The notes under the pieces: model-generated
Seen by the model: the letters and a program-made list of their open reading frames with translations, nothing else
The model's database searches: none
What the model was told of the DNA's origin: nothing
Shown here: in pieces, positions 7,430 through 51,506 of the stretch
Layout: every line of letters starts with the position of its first letter
Numbering within the stretch: the first letter of the stretch is position 1
Origin: Mytilus trossulus
Lineage: Eukaryota
Direction of reading: 5' to 3'
DNA length: 64,000 bases
NCBI RefSeq assembly: GCF_036588685.1
Contig: NC_086381.1
Location: forward strand, 24,304,001-24,368,000
Translations under genes and position numbers: made by a program

Positions 7430-8010
7430 GGAGTAGATCCGGTAAGGACTCATTTTGGCCTCAAATTTCAGTTTCATCTGACGAAAGATTTTGACCACTT
7501 TTTGAACACTTAAGTTCAAGTTTCACTTGATTCAATTAGTTTAAGTGAAAGATTTTAACTGATTTTGTAATTAAAAACTATCCGATTCAAGCTCAAATAT
7601 GGAAAATCTCTCAAATTTATATGCCAAAAAACGTCACTTAGATGGTTTTTGTCAAAAATGAAAGTGGCCGCATCCGTGTTCATCCACAACTTTTATATAT
7701 GTTTTGTATTATCATAAAATACAACTTACATTTCAATATTAAGGATGAACACGAATGCGGCCACTTTCGTTTTACACGGAAACCGTCTAAAATTTAACTA
7801 AAATGATATAATTTTGAAGATTTCAGTAATTTAGCATGACTTAATGGTGCTACAACCAGATATAGGTGCATTGTATTGTCAAAAACAGCCCGTATTTATG
7901 TAGCAGAATCATTCAACTGTCCAAAAAATAACTAAAAGTTTACATTTAAACAATTTTGTAAAACTGTTATATTTTGGGGTCAAAAAGAGGTCTTACCGGA
8001 CCTACTTTTC
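7430..8010. mobile_element. Non-autonomous DNA transposon with imperfect TIRs
   Basis: GAGTAGATCCGGTAAGGAC... vs ...GTCTTACCGGACCTACT; internal inverted repeat AAAGTGGCCGCATCCGTGTTCATCC (7661-7685) / 7743-7768. Confidence 0.6.
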
Positions 8011-13720: not shown

Positions 13721-14199
13721 TCCGCGTCTTAGATTATGGTTTATTATTCACGCCATCTGGTACCGAACATGACCTATTCCCGAATATGACTATTTTGTTG
13801 TGTGTGAATTCGCCGCATTGTTATAAGCCGTGTCACAACGGTATTTGTTATCCAACATTCATGTATTTAAATACTAAGCATTTGCATATCCCAGGCATAG
13901 ATAACCTTAGCCGTAATTGACACAACTTTTTGGAATTTTTAGTCATCATTGCTGTTTAACTTTATACTTGTTTGGCTTTCTTAATATTTGATCTGAGTGT
14001 CATCGATGAGTCTTAAGTAGATGATTTGTGCGTCTGGCGTATCACATTTTACGCAAGGTATCTTTGAAAACAATTAGCATGTCGAAATGTATTTTTGTAT
14101 TGCTTATTTGTTAGTGTATTTCTCTGTACTGAATGTTCTTGCATTTATTTTCACTGAAGTCTGTCATGTAGTATTGTCATTTTAGTGTTATATTTAACA

Positions 14200-14294
14200 T
14201 TGCAATTAAAGCGCGAGGTTTGAATAGCCACAAAACCAGGTTCAACCCGCCATATTTTCTTAAAATATCCTGTACCAAGTCAGGAAAACGGCAG
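14200..14294 (+). ncRNA. Degenerate twister-like motif (variant with GAGGU/UACC pairing)
   Basis: GAGGT...CAACCCGCC-ATATTTTcttAAAATAT-CCTG-TACCAAGT-CAGG; P3 and P4 intact, P2 imperfect. Confidence 0.5.
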
Positions 14295-15084
14295 TTGTTA
14301 TCTAATAGTTAGTTTCTGTGTGTGATGCATTGTCATTTTTTTTTGGTTCCACTTCAGTGTTTCGTTGTTTTCCTCCCTCTTACAGTTGATGCGTTTCCCT
14401 TAGTTTTATTTGTAACCCAGATTTGTTTTCTCTCAATCGATTAATGACTTTCGAACATTGGTATACCACTGTTGCCTTTATCTAATGTAAATAAACTGAT
14501 CATAGATACAAGGATTAAATATTCATTGGTGAACAAAATCTTCATTCAAATCGTACACCTTCACATTCGTTAACTGCATTGCCATGAATTATATAGAATG
14601 TACCTCCAAAACGAACAATAACAATTTCACAGGTATCGTATCGTTATTTTAATATTTCCTTAAGTTCTTATTATTATATTAAAAATATCAAATGCGAAAT
14701 TGCTACATTATATGCGATGCAATCCTTAATGTGAAGCTATTATTTTGATCTATAAAATAAAAATATACATGATATAAAAAAAAAGATATGGTATGCTTGC
14801 CAATGAGACAACTGTCGGACCAAAATGACACAGACATTAACAACTATATGATGCATGTTTTACTACAAAAGGGGTAGAATTTTAACTTTATTGAAACTAT
14901 ACAAATAAAAGAAAATGGTGCATTTTTCTTCGTTTGTCGTTATAATCTGGTATTATATCATATTCAGCAATCTGTACTTAATTTGACTTTTACAATACAT
15001 TTCGCGTCTATATTTCCAACTTTGAATGTACATATAACCAAACTATAGCAGAAATATGATATGATTTCTGGTGTTCATTCATTT

Positions 15085-15834: not shown

Positions 15835-16153
15835 TTCCTGCAAATAATATTTTGAGATAAAGTAACATCTTCTTGTGGTAACATTTTACAGTAAGTAACA
15901 TTCATTTTTTTCTTTAAGGGTGTGGGTTATTGCGAAAACATGAAGAAGACTTATAGGAATTGGGACGACTGAGAAAACATGAAGAAGACTGATAAACAAC
16001 ATCTGATAGTTCAATCTACTTTTTTGATGTTCTGTTATTACATTATTAGTCCAAAATTTCCCCATAATCGATTATTTTTAAGCGATCTCTACGATCTCGT
16101 CTGAGGTTGCATCACGTTATAAGTCAAACAGCAAATAGTTATCAAAGATACCG

Positions 16154-16264
16154 GGAGTCGATTTCACAAAAAAAAACTTACGACTAACATTGATCGTAAG
16201 TATACTGATTTGTTCATGACTTAAGACCAATCTTAGTCGTAAGTGTTTTTGTGAAATCGACTCC
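16154..16264. mobile_element. About 110-bp palindromic MITE inserted into a hammerhead repeat
   Basis: GGAGTCGATTTCACAAAAA...TTTTTGTGAAATCGACTCC; interrupts the GATACC|GGATT sequence of the host repeat. Confidence 0.75.
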
Positions 16265-16280
16265 TGGATTATAATTTAAT

Positions 16281-16324
16281 ACGCCAGACGCGCGTTTCGT
16301 TTACATAAGACTCATCAGTGACGC
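16281..16324 (-). ncRNA. Minimal type I hammerhead ribozyme (variant A, intact core)
   Basis: Minus: GCGUCA-CUGAUGA-GUCUUAUGUAAAC-GAAA-CGCGCG-UC-UGGCGU; one mismatch in stem II. Confidence 0.75.
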
Positions 16325-26409: not shown

Positions 26410-26453
26410 GCGTCACTGATAAGTCTTATGTAGACGAAACGCGCGTCTGGCGT
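26410..26453 (+). ncRNA. Minimal hammerhead (variant A) with core mutation G8A
   Basis: GCGUCA-CUGAUAA-GUCuuauguaGAC-GAAA-CGCGCG-UC-UGGCGU; perfect stems but CUGAUAA instead of CUGAUGA. Confidence 0.65.
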
Positions 26454-26590
26454 ACTAAATTATAATCCTGGTACCTTTGATAACTAAAGTTAAACATTTC
26501 AAACGGCAAAACCAACGGTCTAATCTATATAAAAAAGAGAAACGAGAAACACGTATAAATTACATAAACAAACGAAAACCACTGTTTATC

Positions 26591-26657
26591 AGATTCCTGA
26601 CTTAGGACAGGTGCAAACATTTGCAGCGGGATTAAACGTTTTAATGGTACCAAACCT
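26591..26657 (-). ncRNA. Twister ribozyme remnant (5'-truncated, UCCUAAGU loop)
   Basis: Minus: ...UGGUACCA-UUAAAACGUU-UAA-UCCC-GC-UGCAAAugUUUGCA-CCUG-UCCUAAGU-CAGG. Confidence 0.6.
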
Positions 26658-27985: not shown

Positions 27986-30900
27986 TCAAAGCCAAAATTA
28001 TGAAATCCGAAGTACCGAAAAGAATAATTCACATGAGATAATATCATAGAATATATATAATCATATAAAATATCACAACATAAAACAATTTGTTATTGTT
28101 ATTGTTATTATTTATTAGTTGGTTTAATTCTTTTAAAGTTGCATATCTTATATAAGAAAATTAAGAAGAGGAAAAGAGAATAGCTGGACTACACGTCCAT
28201 TGTGAATATTATTGAGAGTAACGTTACACAACATAGTACGTATTAGCAGTACGGAAGCATAGACGACAATTTGATTTTGACTAGTAATAGGGAAAAAATA
28301 AAATCACAAAAATACTGAAAAATTCAAAAAAGGAAAGTCCCAAATCTAATTGTAAAATAAATCAACAGCATAAACACATCAAACGAAATGATAACATCTA
28401 TCATCCTCTTGACTTGGTACAGACATTTTCTTAGGAAATGGAAGTAAATTTTAGAGTAAATTTAACACAGATCTATCTGATTTGTGTAAGTGACAAAACA
28501 TAATTTTACCTTCATCAGGTACGCTCGAGACCATTGATTACTCGGAAAAAATCAGTGATGAGACACATTTAATGAATTAATGTTGAGGTATTATAGTTGT
28601 CAATAACCTTTGAATATTTCCTTTTCGAATAAAGTTCAATAATTATTATTAAAAATATATATATCATATTGCATTTTAACTTGATTAATTGTTGGGTTAG
28701 GAACAACAATTTTCCTCATACAGAAAAAAATCTTTTTTTCTTAATTGAGTCAATATCAGGGGAGAAAACTCTGTCACATTATGTATTTCGATATATAACC
28801 ATATATACATATCATCTGGGATTATTCATCAATATATTATGTCTCAGATATCATATGTATATAGTGTTACATTGAGAGATGTATAATGTCTACAAACATG
28901 TTATTCATAATTTAATAACGAGAGGCCTATCAAGATCTATCAAGTCTCACGCATTTTCATGATTATTTGACTGTATTTTGCTTTGATCTATTGTTTTATT
29001 TTCTCTTTGATCCTTACAATTTTGTCAAATCTCACACATTTGAAAAGCTCTGTAAGTGGCGGTACCGAAGAAGTGACACATTAATTACTTTTAATTAATA
29101 ATAGATTACTTTGATAAACAAACAAATCAATCCAGCTGGAGCTAAACTTATAATTCCTATAATGTTTTCAATATTTTCCGTGTGACAAATATTATGAATA
29201 TTGATTTTTATACTTCCATGGTTTATTTTCCTTCACGTTTTCTTTGTTCTAACATTATTTCGCCTAGAAGCACGATTCGAAGAATTTACTAGAAAAGTAC
29301 TGCCATTAGTAAGAATTTTGTTTATAAAGTTTTGCAAAAATGTGTTTGTTTTTATATTGGGAGAGTTTTTTTGTGTTCACAATAACATTTTATTTATTTT
29401 ATCATAACACTAAGTCAGTCACCTTAGCAAAGATTCTTCATGTTTACATGATAGCACGGGTTTTTTTCTGCAGATCTTGAAAGAACATTATATAAATATT
29501 AGTTATGAAAGAGTTTTATTTTCTTGTTGTTGTTGTATACTAGTATATGATTAAAAGACAATGTATGCTGCAGAGGCTTTGATGTGTTTTCAAAGGGATT
29601 TATGAAATTTTGTATTTTGTTAGACTAAATAACACTTTGGTGCACTATTCTTGGCGAGCATAATGTAGGTTATAGTTCTTGTTCACACTTTATTAAGAAA
29701 AGGGTCAAAATTGATAGATTAATTTTACTGATATATCGTCTGAGAAAGAAGAAGAACTTATTTGATAATAAGCGATATTACAGAATATTTACTAAAAAAT
29801 AATTAAACACACACTTTTTTATTTTAGAAAAAAAACCATGAATATTCTAAAAGCACCTATGGATGAATCGTGTTTAAAAATGATTAAAGACTGTTTCTTT
29901 ACAAAAATAATCTAAGACTTTAAGATTACAAGGGTCTAACAAGATTATCATAACGTAATAGCAAATATGGCCGTGTACGACTTATTAAAAGTTATATGTA
30001 TCAAATAGTTCGTTTGTATGTTTGTTGGTATTCTTTTTTGTCGCACTACAGTGTTCCTCGCCTGTTGTTCCTTTGTTTGCCTCTTAAAGTTCTCCTACTT
30101 TTATTTTGTTTTCTCTCAATTGATTTATGAATTTTGAACACCGGTATACTAATGTTGCCTATCTTAATTTGTATAGAGATTAAGCTGAATCATAACCAAA
30201 CTGGTTACTTATAAAGCCGACATTTACTGAGTTGAATGGAATGTTAGAAGTTATAGCAGTTATACGTTGTGTTAGGTTGGGGATGCTGGGAATCGTCTCT
30301 CATAAGTATTTAATTAAAAAAGATGTCGTCAGATGTCTACAAGCTTTTATGGTATGATGAAGGTGGCTATGAAGTGTGGATAATAATTTGTTTTTGAACG
30401 ATACAAAATGTAACAATTTCCTTATTTGGCCATTAATGTCAGGATAGAGATCCCTGAATGGTTGAATATATCTTAAACACATTCACATATAAATGCTGAC
30501 CTAACTCGACATTGTTTGCCTATATAAAAGCTGTACTAAGCTTGGAATGATACGTCTCACCATGTCGACAAAGATTCAATTGGACAAGTGCTTGACAAAA
30601 GCTTCTTTATAAACAAAATTATATGCCCTAGTAAAAATGTTGGTCCAATGTATCATGTTTAACTTTGAATGTCTTCCCATAGTACCATAGAAAATTGTAA
30701 AAGAAAAAATCTACCTGAATTGAATTGAGATAAATCTCGGTATTTGCATTTTAAGGAGTCAAGAGATATCAGTATAGAAATTCCATTGTAACAGTGCAGA
30801 AAATCCTATAGAAGAAGATTCCAATGAAAAACATCGTTCAAATTAAACATTTGAAAAAAGAAATACAAGTGTTAAATTTAATGGATCTTGTAAAAGCCAA

Positions 30901-33348: not shown

Positions 33349-36300
33349 ATGAAATTGATTTTATTTTTCACGGCAACATTTGTGTCGGCTTCTCTGGCTG
33401 TAGTTGATCTAAATGGTCAATGGAATCGGTGGAAAACTGACTTTGACAAATATTACAGTACTTCAGAAGATGAAGCTAACAAGCGTGCCGTGTGGGAGAT
33501 GAACCTGGAATATGTTAATGCACACAACAATGATGTACAATCAGAATTCAGATTGGCAATGAACGAATTTGCTGACCAGGTGGGTTTTTATGTTATTGTA
33601 TTTAAAATGTGAACCGTACATAGACGTAACCATAACCCCAAAACGACTTCCTCTGATAGTAATATTCATAAATTGTCTTCGTTGGGGGACAACATAGCAT
33701 TTTTAATTGTCATCTTTAGAACTAAAGAACTAAACTCCGGACACTATTAACAAAAAAATATCAGCAAATATTGATCTTCAAATGAGATTACTAGTATATA
33801 TAATTAAAACGCATATTGGCATTGATATAGTGATGATTAACTTGTTGGTGACATTTGAATTTAGATGTGTCGGGAGGGGGGCTTTGAAACTCCAAAAATT
33901 ATACTGAATCTATTGGTAAGCTACATAAATTTTAAAATTTTAATTGAGAAAAAAAAATCAAATTGTAAGTGAATGATCGAGTCTCTATTTCAAAAGTCAA
34001 AAAGAAGATGTACTTAGTATTTCATATTCTTCGCTTATTAGTTCAATTTCTTCAAGATTGGAACCTGTTAATTTTCAATTATGACGATTGCACATTATTG
34101 TGTATAAAAACGCGTTCCGGCGTTCTTTTGTTACTATCTTGGGTCAGTTGTTGGCGGTGGTTGCTGTCTGTCATGATGTTCAAGTTTTCGTTTGTTATTT
34201 TGGCATAGGTCGCACTGATGTTTTTTCTTCTTTTCTTCTTTTCACATTGGGTCTACTCGTATGTGGGTCCTTTATAGCTCACTATACGGTATGTGTTTTG
34301 TTGAATGTTGATTAGCGTGCCGTGTAATGCATACAAATCAGGAGACGCTTATCCCGTTCCCGGTCTTCTTTCCATGTAGAGTTCATGTGATTCCTTTAGT
34401 TTTAGTTTGTGTTTTTTTTTTTACCTTCTTCTTTTCTCTTCGACAGATTTCCGAAAACCTATCACTCATCGTGAGAAAAGAAATATGCTTTAATTTGATC
34501 TCCATTAAACAACTGTCCACTAATTTTATAAACAAAGCCAGTCGGATCATTTGGTGTCAGCATGACGAGTCTAATTATCTCATTGGGAATCACATCACAT
34601 ATTCTTTTTTATATGTCATAAATACTTGATTTATCATTACAGGAATCACCAAAACGTCCACATATTAAAACTGATTCTGAAAGAGAGTATGAAGAGATTG
34701 AACACAATTGGACTTATTTACCGTCTACTTTTGATTGGAGAACAAAAGGTGCAATAGGTCCTGTGCAAAATCAAGGACAGCTGGGACAAGTACTTTCAGT
34801 TGCAGCTATAGGTGATATTCTTGAAAAATTCACGCTACTATCTATATTCTATATCAATATCACTGTGTGCTTCTTAAAATCTAGTGCATTTTAAATTTGA
34901 TTTGTTATGATTTGATTTGACATTTTTAAAAACAAGTGAAAAGTGTTAAGTGCAATTGAATAGGGGTCAATATAGATGGAATGCATCTTTAAAACATTTT
35001 AAAATCTAAATCTACAACTTGATTTGAAGAAAAATCCCAAAACAACTCTACGCTTAACATTTTTATTCTATATCCATATCAATGTGTGCTACTTAACATC
35101 TAGTTCACTTTAAAAAAAAGTTTGGTTTCTCTTAAGTGTGAGTTGTTTTGGGGATTTTTCTTCAAATCAAGTTGCGTGATTTTGCGTTTAATAGATGTGT
35201 TATGTAAGATGTCTTTAAACAAGAAGTATTTTTTTCTCATCCTACTTTTTTTTATTTATTTCAAAAAGCTCAGACAAAGTATTTATATTCAGGGGAGCTG
35301 AAGATTTAGATTTTAAAATGTTTAAAAGATGCATTCCATCTATATATTAACCCCTATTCAATTGTACTTAACACTTTTTCACTTGTTTTTAAAAATGTCA
35401 AATCAAATCAAATCAAATTTAAAATGCACTAGATTTTAAGTAGCACACAGTGATATGAATATAGAATAAAAATGTCAGTATGAAACCTGAAAAAAAAGTA
35501 TTCACTAATGTAACAATAGCCTGTGTGCAATTGATACGATATAATTCACCAAATGTTATAGAACTGAACATGACGAAGAATTAAACTGTTTTTTTTTTCT
35601 TTTTTAACACAGAAATTATGGAAAGCTATGAATTTATAAAAAGTAGACGTTCGATTCCATTAAGCTTGCAAGAAGTGGTGGACTGCTGTACTCATGGGTC
35701 TGAGTTGGTGACACCAGTGTTTAACTGTATACATAATATAGGTGGTCTGTGTTCAATGGCAGATTATCCAACGCATGGTCCAGCTGGACAGTGCAGAAAC
35801 ACAAGCTGTACGTCCGTTGTACGGGTATGTTATTCCCTATCATGTATACTAGTTTTCAATAGTTCAAACAATTCATAAGTTTTGCATTTTTTTTTTAAAT
35901 AGTATAAATAAGAGACAAGAATTTCTTTCATTGCTTATAAACTCGTCATAGATACCAGGACTAAATTTTGTATATACGACAGACGCGCGTTTCGTCTACA
36001 AAAAACTCATCAGTGACGCTCGAATCCAAAAAAGTTAAAAGAGGCCAAATAAAGTACGAAGTTGAAGAGCATTGAGGACCAAAGTTCCTAAAAGTTTTGC
36101 CAAATCCAGCTTAGGTAATATATGCCTGAGGAAGAAAATCCTTAGTATTTCAAAAAATCAAAATTTTGTAAACAGTTGTGCAAGCCACGTTTTACTACAA
36201 TGTTAAGATATCAATAAACATCATAGATGTTTGCTAATTCTAAAATAAAAACTTTATAAATTTACTTAGTTAAAAAATATAAAGTTTGTCTTGGAACTTC

Positions 36301-37394: not shown

Positions 37395-39381
37395 AAATAC
37401 TATTATGTGTGAAAGCCTTTGGTTTCAGCTATCCTGGTTGTTGGTTAACACATACTGGTAGCTTTTCCTAATATGTTATCCTCATTCAAATAAAACTGAT
37501 AGTAGCCAATGTTTTTTTATTAATAAAAAAAAATAGGGAATGTGTCCATGGGACACAGATGGTGCCTCCACTTGTATATCATATAAAGTTATAAAGGGGA
37601 CAACATTGTAAAGGGATATATCTCTTGAACGGTTGAAGTGACACCACCAAACACCACCATTGATCTGTAGTTTGTGGCAATAAGCATTGTGTATAAGTTT
37701 TGATAACATTTGGTCGAGACAAAACAAGAGTTATAGAAGAGAAACAAAAAAATCAGCAATTTTTCATATGTAAAGTGGCATAACTCTAGAATGTTAAAAG
37801 GGATGCTACCACAATTCAACCATGATCTGTGGTTTGTTGTAATAAGCATTTTGTATGAGTTTCATAACATTTGGCTGAAGCAATTAAAATAAGGGGAACA
37901 GAACGGAAACCAACTTTGGGACGTACCTACATACAGACAAGGTTAAAACTTAATGCTCCGCCCGTTCCGTGGGGGCAAATAAATCAAAAAGTGCACAAGA
38001 GGCTAGCAAATAGCTTTACTTGCCTAAATATGTACCACCTACGACATTGCAAAGTTTAATAACATCACTAATGTCAATACCTACTACAAACTAATCTAGA
38101 GAGAGGTCCGGTGGTAAATACAATGGAACAGACACCAAGAACTACATACAGGAGATAACATTAATAAGATGAAAGCAACTGTCAAGAATATTTGGGTTTT
38201 GATCCTTAATCTAAGAAAGTCCAAAGTAAGTAAGTACAGCCAGTACCAGTATGGATACTGTTCCAGTATCAAATAATTTTCTAGCCATGATACTACATGG
38301 TACCATTAATCAAATTCTGCAATTGACAAATACAGAATTCATTAGAGGGCTTTCAGAGACGCAACCTTGACTTGATTTTACAGATGTATATGCTGAATAA
38401 CAAGAACTGTTGGGACTTTGTTTCTGATTTCATATGAAACTCAATGAGAAGGTTGATAGCACCTGGCACACTGGATAAACAGTAATCCAGAATGCTCCAG
38501 AATGCTCCGAAACCAGTTGGGAAGAAAATACAAAAGTATACACACAAACTTATACCACCAAAATGAGGCTTAAAAGGAGTCAATAAGTGTTGTTTTTGGT
38601 GGATGTTTTTAGTAAGTTATTGTTGGCTTTGAACTAGATTTCAGAAACTGTGAGTCAACTCAGATCATTGTGTGTCTTCAGTCTTTTGATTGTTTTTGAT
38701 TTTTTATTTAGCTTTGTGTCGATCTAATGAGTGTAGTTAATTTAAACTGATTTTTACAGTTTGATCTTATGTTGAACTGTAACAACACTGTCCTATATTT
38801 GGGGTAAAAAAACATGTTGAACCCAGCAACATTTTGTATATATTATGCCTGTTCCAAATCAGGAGCCACTTATTCAGTTATCATTTGTTTTTATTGTATC
38901 TCATATATGTTTTTTTACATCAATCAGGCCATTGCCTTTCTAGGCTGAACTGTTTAAATTTGTCACTTTTGGCCTTTTGCATTTCTATGCAGTCTTTTCC
39001 TCATTGTTCAATAGATATAGGAAGATGTGGTGTGAGTGCCAATGAGACAACTCTCCATTCAAATAACAATTTAAAAAGTAAACCATTAAAGGTTAAAGTA
39101 CGGCCTTCAACACGGAGCCTTGGCTCACACCAAACAACAAGCAAAGGGCCCCAAAATTACTACTGTAAAACCATTCAAACGGGAAAACCAACGGTCTAAT
39201 CTATATAAACAAAACGAGAAACACGTATATATTACATAAACAAATGACAACTACTGTACATCAGATTCCTGACTTAGGACAGGTGCAAGGCTGCATAACA
39301 ACCTATTGTTTCTATCATGGTCATATGGTCCCTTGTGGATAGTTGCCTGAATTGGAATCAATTCATGGTTTTATTTGTTTA

Positions 39382-51356: not shown

Positions 51357-51506
51357 ATTTTAGTTAAAGATAATTATCTAAAAGAAAGATAAAATTGAAA
51401 TTGATTATTCAAATAAAATTTCATCTGATGTTAGGCAGATTAAACATGTTAGCAGGATCCTGACCCTCCCCCTAATCTGGGACATCAAGTTCATTACTAG
51501 TCTGCA

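Follow-up and report, generated by a model that had tools for sequence, protein, structure and literature searches.

Two tandem palindromes in the place of stem P1 in a twister-like motif of Naiad retrotransposons

Naiad retrotransposons of Mytilus trossulus carry, on their sense strand and about 280 nt before the fixed 3′ end of variably 5′-truncated elements, a motif with the anatomy of a type-P5 twister ribozyme in which two short tandem palindromes occupy the place of stem P1. We regard this motif as a variant of a known ribozyme class, conserved across two phyla, in a host clade from which no such ribozyme is known. We give about even odds (roughly 0.5) to the reading that the palindromes would pair two RNA copies of the element and thereby switch on a predicted self-cleavage. 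In the parts of the literature available to our search, no twister is reported in Naiads or other Penelope-like elements and no palindromes are reported in place of P1; the word "twister" has 0 occurrences in the main text and supplement text of PMC8557442. Single members may already be listed as P5 twisters in the original twister alignments, their palindromes unnoticed.

The first-pass annotation of the window (the whole 64,000-nt stretch of DNA analysed) had described six palindromes, two at each of three loci, and had claimed that no normal P1 forms beside them. All six (6/6) are indeed present, all on the minus strand, and the junction forms 0 bp of P1 in 12 of 12 representative copies, so that the P1 stem expected of a type-P5 member is absent; Rfam leaves this segment unaligned. 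Folded as a monomer, the junction segment reaches a predicted 0 to -1.1 kcal/mol. Both palindromes of the locus that served as our starting point, hereafter the anchor, arise in 0 of 5000 shuffles, and in nine copies with a palindrome 2 of even length both arise in 0-7 of 5000.

Each of the three loci is a piece of a different repeat family, namely A (1406-1496), B (the anchor) and C (26585-26657), and a search of the 1.3-Gb genome gave at least 40 scored copies of each family. Among the three, the whole motif is found at 1406-1496 only, and three further copies are 100% identical to it over 101 nt. On the minus strand, this intact family-A motif comprises P5 (1488-1496 with 1406-1415), P2 (1480-1483 with 1447-1450), the G-A-T1′ strand (1475-1479), P3 (1434-1443), P4 (1429-1432 with 1417-1420) and L4 (1421-1428), with a predicted cut between 1453 and 1452. 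Its palindrome 1 (10 nt, 1464-1473) has a predicted self-duplex energy of -14.0 kcal/mol and a hairpin energy of 0, and its palindrome 2 (10 nt, 1453-1462), which includes the base before the cut, has -8.2 kcal/mol and 0, respectively. The motif lies in the 3′ end of a 5′-truncated family-A Naiad on the same strand (1170-1520, ends approximate).

The anchor (51434-51490, minus strand, 29 bits) is a family-B fragment that holds P5a, P2b (51469-51472), the general-base G, A and T1′ strand (51464-51468; both in the register of the Rfam P5 alignment), palindrome 1 (10 nt, 51453-51462), palindrome 2 (8 nt, 51443-51450, ending at position -2) and a predicted cut between 51442 and 51441, together with a damaged P2a and the 5′ strand of T2. 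Its homology to family B extends over about 50 nt, only from -12 to +39 around P2b, and stops right after the T2 5′ strand. Because P3, P4, L4 and P5b are missing, the anchor copy cannot fold as a twister and, judged from its sequence, is a dead fossil fragment. None of the first 100 of the 2,270 exact matches to family B has its perfect 10-nt palindrome 1, the usual family form being an 8-nt palindrome closed by a U-G wobble; we therefore treated the anchor 10-mer as a private variant and rejected it as covariation. The family-C copy (26585-26657, minus strand; palindromes at 26645-26652 and 26634-26641) is 5′-truncated inside the catalytic strand, lacks P2b, P5a and the family-C G-A, and has its 3′ tail interrupted by the end of a hammerhead-bearing element. 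The first-pass annotation had also proposed that the palindromes covary. With two copies truncated and the anchor 10-mer private, the window copies alone are weak evidence for this, but the proposal holds between families and subfamilies, where the strong covariation evidence lies.

Scanning with a model of the motif yields 7 remnants across the window and 47 across 580 kb sampled at fixed steps (about 80 per Mb). Further window copies are a decayed D-type motif (14193-14301, plus strand, 62.6 bits), another decayed copy (38782-38880, plus strand, 36.4 bits), the 3′ half of a family-C motif with P4, L4 and P5b (39251-39324, minus strand, 30.1 bits) and a weak remnant (28391-28466, minus strand, 21.6 bits, E 0.002). 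The window also contains three type-I hammerheads with a palindromic stem III, all below the Rfam threshold (16281-16324, minus; 26410-26453, plus; 35976-36019, minus), which lie at the ends of another Penelope-like family; the copy at 26410 is the one inserted in the tail of the family-C copy. Long inverted repeats at 7639-7789 and 16136-16277 gave chance microRNA-type Rfam matches and are probably the ends of small DNA elements.

Family A and family C belong to the Naiad (Penelope-like) retrotransposons, as probably does family B. In family A, 282 nt separate the predicted cut from the element 3′ end. Longer family-A copies run into an open reading frame with an N-terminal GIY-YIG-like endonuclease motif, read in translation, CxC and DKA motifs, both present in the translations, and a reverse transcriptase (RT), and the frame stops after the RT thumb without a C-terminal endonuclease; these features are Naiad diagnostics according to PMC8557442. 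The partial tandem repeats, 5′ truncation and fixed 3′ end of Naiads were likewise found. Pfam searches with the RT and endonuclease pieces gave no significant match. An RT lies upstream on the same strand at 23 of 35 family-A loci, 11 of 51 family-C loci and 3 of 15 D1/D2 loci, the D1/D2 RT being about 40% identical to that of family A. The 29 family-B loci yielded one interrupted RT match (31 aa, 77% identity, E 7e-11), and no RT of their own was found for the E-type copies. The 3′ end of family D2 matches that of the published Naiad_Mgal.

An upstream repeat of the 3′ end is present at 25 of the 40 loci that hold the N-terminus, and 17 of the 25 upstream repeats of full-length family-A copies include a whole second motif. 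Two loci (L383, L384) are head-to-tail Naiad arrays with a 4.0-kb period; the L383 segments compared match the reference copy with 100% identity, suggestive of recent activity. At L141:2650-3500, a near-full-length copy is preceded by an inverted 5′-truncated family-A copy, a typical arrangement for Penelope-like insertions. Naiads are reported to dominate bivalve genomes and to have no canonical hammerhead (PMC8557442).

The first-pass annotation had recognized a twister-like core of type P5, and the strand order, the covarying pseudoknots and the conserved A and G bear this out. A family-A copy identical to that of the window (L004) aligned over the whole Rfam Twister-P5 model, with the 21 nt that run from the catalytic strand to the cut site left out of the alignment; its 23.3 bits are our best score and fall short of the gathering threshold of 37.6. 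Searching the whole window with Rfam gave no twister at the gathering threshold or at E up to 10, and searching short stretches gave twisters below threshold only (5 weak matches in 20 copies). A hammerhead catalytic core is absent from the motif, on which Rfam returned no hammerhead match. Across 10 family representatives, the 13 pairs of P2, T1, T2 and P4 are 90.8% paired as compared to 27-52% in slid controls, such counts being inflated by relatedness, and the D-type rows are misregistered at P2. Stems P2 and P4 are both present with an L4 loop: P4 is 95% paired and P2 77.5%, on the alignment that misregisters the 3-bp P2 plus bulge of the D-type rows. Both pseudoknots are present, with T1 96.7% and T2 100% paired. 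Two T1 pairs show two-sided changes among the 10 representatives, as does P2, and two clam families have T2 altered in both strands; additional changes of this kind in P2, T1, T2, P3, P4 and P5 were seen by eye in clam and cnidarian Naiads of the PMC8557442 supplement. A P5 helix closes the folds of intact copies, placing the termini in P5, and its sequence differs between families.

The A after the cut, the A that follows it and the catalytic-strand G are invariant in the 10 representatives and in 7 published families. From twister anatomy, we take the A after the cut to be the general acid and this G to be the general base. The base at -1 varies among families (U, C, G), and active twisters are reported to tolerate such variation (PMC11662667). 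We conclude that the motif is a twister by anatomy with a predicted self-cleavage; we do not assign it to RF02684 because P1 is absent, the score is below threshold and cleavage is only predicted. We consider it very improbable that the fold persists for structural reasons (protein binding, 3′-end protection or a dimer scaffold) and no longer cuts. The low Rfam score, the reduction of P2 to 3 bp with a bulge in the mussel D-type families, a T1 pair that is mismatched in four families (D1 and three published ones) and element 5′ ends that do not clearly pile up at the cut would all fit a fold of this kind. However, the two As and the G are kept in all intact families, the -1 base varies just as in active twisters and both pseudoknots covary.

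Where the motif has its two palindromes, a P1 hairpin of 8 bp stands in the Rfam P5 consensus, which indicates that the palindromes are not a standard feature of known P5 twisters. The same is true of viral sequences: a loose P5 pattern retrieved 58 loci on viral contigs, among which 16 matches had a fully paired P2, and 15 of these 16 fold a hairpin at this place with -10 to -19 kcal/mol, the sixteenth being misparsed. Two viral contigs contain runs of several canonical P5 twisters a few hundred bases apart (L244, L245, L272, L282-L285). P1 need not be essential for catalysis. Twisters without P1 are reported to cleave at an almost wild-type rate (PMC5408937), and in a large screen of type-P1 twisters, which mentions new bivalve candidates, P1 defects did not lower cleavage (PMC11662667).

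The palindromes change in sequence while they remain self-complementary. For family C, we searched with the two central bases left free and counted centres by eye in the first 100 of 2,776 exact matches: GC was found 57 times, AU 36, UA 5 and GU 2, which makes 98 self-complementary centres and two that are compatible with a GU wobble. In an alignment of 54 copies with 432 columns, 4 columns separate the AU from the GC subfamily, 2 of them being the centre, and 8 columns separate the AU from the UA subfamily; the centre pair differs here by construction and the other columns are linked diagnostics. As a rough estimate from column counts, given one central change, the chance that its neighbor has also changed and is complementary is about 0.2-0.5% each time. 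Across families, palindrome 1 presents all four self-complementary centre dinucleotides and 8 different tetramers, and the centres of palindrome 2 include AU, UA and CG. The D-type families (6,220 matches) and the older E-type copies (35 matches) provide further palindromes. One E-type variant was dropped from this tally since it can be derived from another by CpG decay on both strands, and family F was dropped for the imperfect palindromes of its copies seen.

Conservation of the palindromes in family consensuses, which the first-pass annotation had made a test of its idea, is observed both in the genome-wide family majorities and in the Naiad consensuses of seven species. In the unselected 580-kb sample, whose copies are related and were found with a model built on palindrome-bearing copies, 38 of the 47 rows have a full junction (the other 9 were dropped); palindrome 1 is kept in 25 of these 38 against 6.6 expected, and both palindromes of at least 6 nt are kept in 17 against 1.8 expected. 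Palindrome 1 has predicted self-duplex energies of -11 to -18 kcal/mol and the weaker palindrome 2 of -5 to -8 kcal/mol, and in a matrix of 9 families every palindrome 1 pairs best with itself. A duplex of identical RNAs needs self-complementary centres and a hairpin loop does not, and it is on this ground likely that the palindromes pair between RNA copies, an assessment that covers jointly the two leading readings discussed below.

Pairing within a single RNA was considered as well. Each palindrome could be an intramolecular mini-hairpin, the two together forming a junction that replaces P1, an arrangement that we find very improbable. Hairpins of 3 bp with loops of 3-4 nt can be drawn for most palindromes, and the palindrome 2 of D-type families, which is of odd length with an unpaired centre, fits a triloop. 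Yet the predicted energies of the palindromes as hairpins are 0 to -0.7 kcal/mol, and the bases of a loop need no self-complementarity but keep it nonetheless.

In the mechanism that we favor, the 20-23-nt loop of a lone RNA would be unstructured or folded back, with the first half of palindrome 2 on the T1′ strand; such a fold-back would hide the pseudoknot strand and expose palindrome 1. Palindrome 1 would then find a partner of the same family, either in the upstream tandem repeat of the same transcript or in another transcript, after which palindrome 2 would pair with the partner, free T1′ and give a helix at the usual position of the P1 5′ strand. Both copies would be cut, releasing unit-length RNA from tandem or read-through transcripts, and a lone or re-joined RNA would stay uncut and could be reverse-transcribed across the site. 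In most inserted copies the sequence continues intact through the predicted cut site, which implies that their templates had either escaped cutting or been re-joined. On geometric reasoning, two helices joining one pair of closed loops would interlink them, so that the two helices may be unable to exist together; they may instead arise one after the other or with different partners. The helix between T1′ and palindrome 2 measures 3-7 bp; no longer helix was found in 7 of 10 representatives, and in 3 of 10 it is not the best. Shuffled loops match its length in 6-75% of trials, and we therefore rejected its length alone as evidence of significance. By eye, its letters change together in the two cnidarian families of the published set.

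Dimer-dependent cleavage has a precedent in related elements. The hammerheads of other Penelope-like elements, which have palindromic loops, are reported to show weak cleavage as dimers and none as monomers (PMC4209133), and dimer-only cleavage is also described in PMC6765202. The suggestion of the first-pass annotation that the motif pairs in trans or between tandem copies gains from the covariation of the centres and from the second motif in 17 of 25 upstream repeats; cleavage, and its dependence on a partner, are predictions of the model.

Since P1 is dispensable in twisters, the monomer may simply be active. This leads to the main rival reading, which we hold to be unlikely, though deserving of serious attention, and in which the motif is a monomer-active twister without P1 and the palindromes are an RNA dimerization signal for packaging or template switching that acts independently of cutting. 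It would account equally well for all of the covariation evidence and is consistent with the dispensability of P1 (PMC5408937, PMC11662667), with the dimerization of Ty1 RNA through palindromes (PMC6844567) and with eight other Naiads in which a 10-nt palindrome occupies the same 3′ UTR place on a different fold. The latter observation suggests that pairing may matter apart from this catalyst. Against independence from cutting, the end of palindrome 2 falls at -1 or -2 in all families read, and T1′ is complementary to the first half of palindrome 2; in addition, if the site 282 nt before the 3′ end were cut constitutively, one would not readily expect most copies to span it.

The starts of the upstream repeats do not cluster clearly at the cut: of 25 such 5′ ends, 1 is located there, 7 lie further downstream and 17 further upstream. 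In a single full-length family-A copy (L340:750-1040), the upstream repeat starts 2 nt before the predicted cut, and this start fits a template made by self-cleavage. We further examined 30 of the 73 matches that lack the letters of palindrome 2. Eight of these are intact with small indels, 15 have no 5′ half within 1.5 kb, and at 7 family-A copies (L345, L350, L357, L362, L364, L368, L372) other sequences, mostly element 3′ ends, are inserted a few bases from the predicted cut, a count made at the cut site alone rather than as an enrichment over matched neighboring sites. These insertions may mark a hot spot or just an A+T-rich target.

A palindrome is just as palindromic in DNA, where one arm can be copied onto the other by template switching. 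The palindromes could thus act at the DNA level or persist by template-switch repair, without selection on RNA pairing, and the insertions around the cut in 7 of 30 loci would agree with this. We consider such an origin hardly probable: the palindrome sequences are too different for a protein site, their position relative to the RNA fold is fixed from mussels to cnidarians, and several palindromes are closed by U-G pairs that are valid in the sense RNA only, although some flanks are plain mismatches. Pairing between RNAs, with the predicted cleavage dependent on it, remains our preferred reading.

The motif extends to Naiads of other species. We read by eye the 3′ ends of 22 of the 54 published consensuses (PMC8557442 supplement; three names were inferred from list order), and 7 of the 22 have the core and the two palindromes without a P1 hairpin: Naiad_Mgal, Bpla and Mphi of mussels, Scon and Mmer of clams, Naiad-1_Movir of a box jellyfish and Naiad-4_Chem of a hydrozoan. 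In the six families other than Mgal, the palindromes are 6-12 nt long and mostly new in sequence, and the helices are re-lettered. The motif was not seen in the other 15 of the 22 3′ ends. Eight of these 15 (Naiad_CGi, Sglo, Olur, Tgra, Pmar, Skow-2, Pfla-1 and Pfla-2) present at the same 3′ UTR place a different, non-twister conserved fold with a 10-nt palindrome, which is also found in this genome (L157:6495-6640, L122:1762-1931, L119:1684-1853, L337:371-540). This second fold combines a G-rich strand with a 10-nt palindrome that varies in sequence, followed by nested helices and possible pseudoknots; it is loosely HDV-like, has no Rfam match and is a candidate for a new ribozyme or dimerization module. 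In the 3′ UTRs of Naiad_Amil, Aacu, Anas and Plae, we observed by eye the halves of a hammerhead core in reversed order with flanking helices, which suggests permuted hammerheads missed by the published descriptors.

The reported lack of hammerheads in Naiads had left the processing of their tandem transcripts, and the importance of such ribozymes in general, unexplained (PMC8557442). That a twister-like fold occurs at the corresponding position in elements from jellyfish to mussels is an argument that what these elements need is a self-cutting RNA and not a hammerhead as such. At about 80 remnants per Mb, the motif would rank among the most abundant ribozyme-like motifs of these genomes. Its palindromes, self-complementary and yet changing, allow a direct test of whether element RNAs dimerize, and RNA dimerization could explain the tandem and inverted insertions of Naiads. 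A fuller proposal, which we advance tentatively and rate somewhat below an even chance, is that the lone RNA hides its pseudoknot strand and that pairing within a family releases the strand and fires both ribozymes. The motif would then be a natural dimerization-switched twister, an ancient design shared by cnidarians and bivalves, the missing ribozyme of part of the Naiad clade and a self-recognition code that separates co-resident families. If true, a concentration-gated and sequence-addressable twister would also be a useful RNA switch.

Compared to known systems, the host elements resemble the published Naiads (PMC8557442) in their N-terminal endonuclease, CxC and DKA motifs, ORF end after the RT thumb and partial tandem repeats; in the published consensuses, the motif is present but unannotated in the seven 3′ ends named above. 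With the type-P5 twister (RF02684; PMC5408937), the motif shares strand order, P2, P4, L4, both pseudoknots, the catalytic A and G, the open end at P5 and about 20 nt from the catalytic strand to the cut site. It differs in that the Rfam consensus and phage P5 twisters have a P1 hairpin of 6-11 bp where the motif has 0 bp and two palindromes; unlike them, it also carries P3 and scores below the gathering threshold. The twister T-variants of Schistosoma Perere-3 (PMC8501958) are likewise borne by a retrotransposon, in this case non-LTR, and have a defective P1, but they are open at P1, lie at the element 5′ end and have one P1 strand supplied by the target duplication. The motif is instead of type P5, located inside the 3′ UTR and the repeat, and its P1 is replaced by palindromes that the element itself encodes. 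Retroviral dimer-initiation palindromes pair two RNA copies and sit in the 5′ region, outside any ribozyme. PAL1 and PAL2 of Ty1 are, like the palindromes of the motif, short self-complementary sequences, and they pair two retroelement RNAs (PMC6844567); they lie in the 5′ region of an LTR element with Gag and are not part of a ribozyme. Finally, the hammerheads of Penelope-like elements (PMC4209133) are similar to the motif in host class, in terminal-repeat position, in the weak or missing stem beside the cut and in the palindromic loop. For these hammerheads, dimer-dependent cleavage has been proposed and partly shown (PMC4209133), and for the motif it is predicted. They use one short palindrome and a strand-swapped helix, whereas the motif belongs to another ribozyme class and has two tandem palindromes that would need loop-loop pairing.
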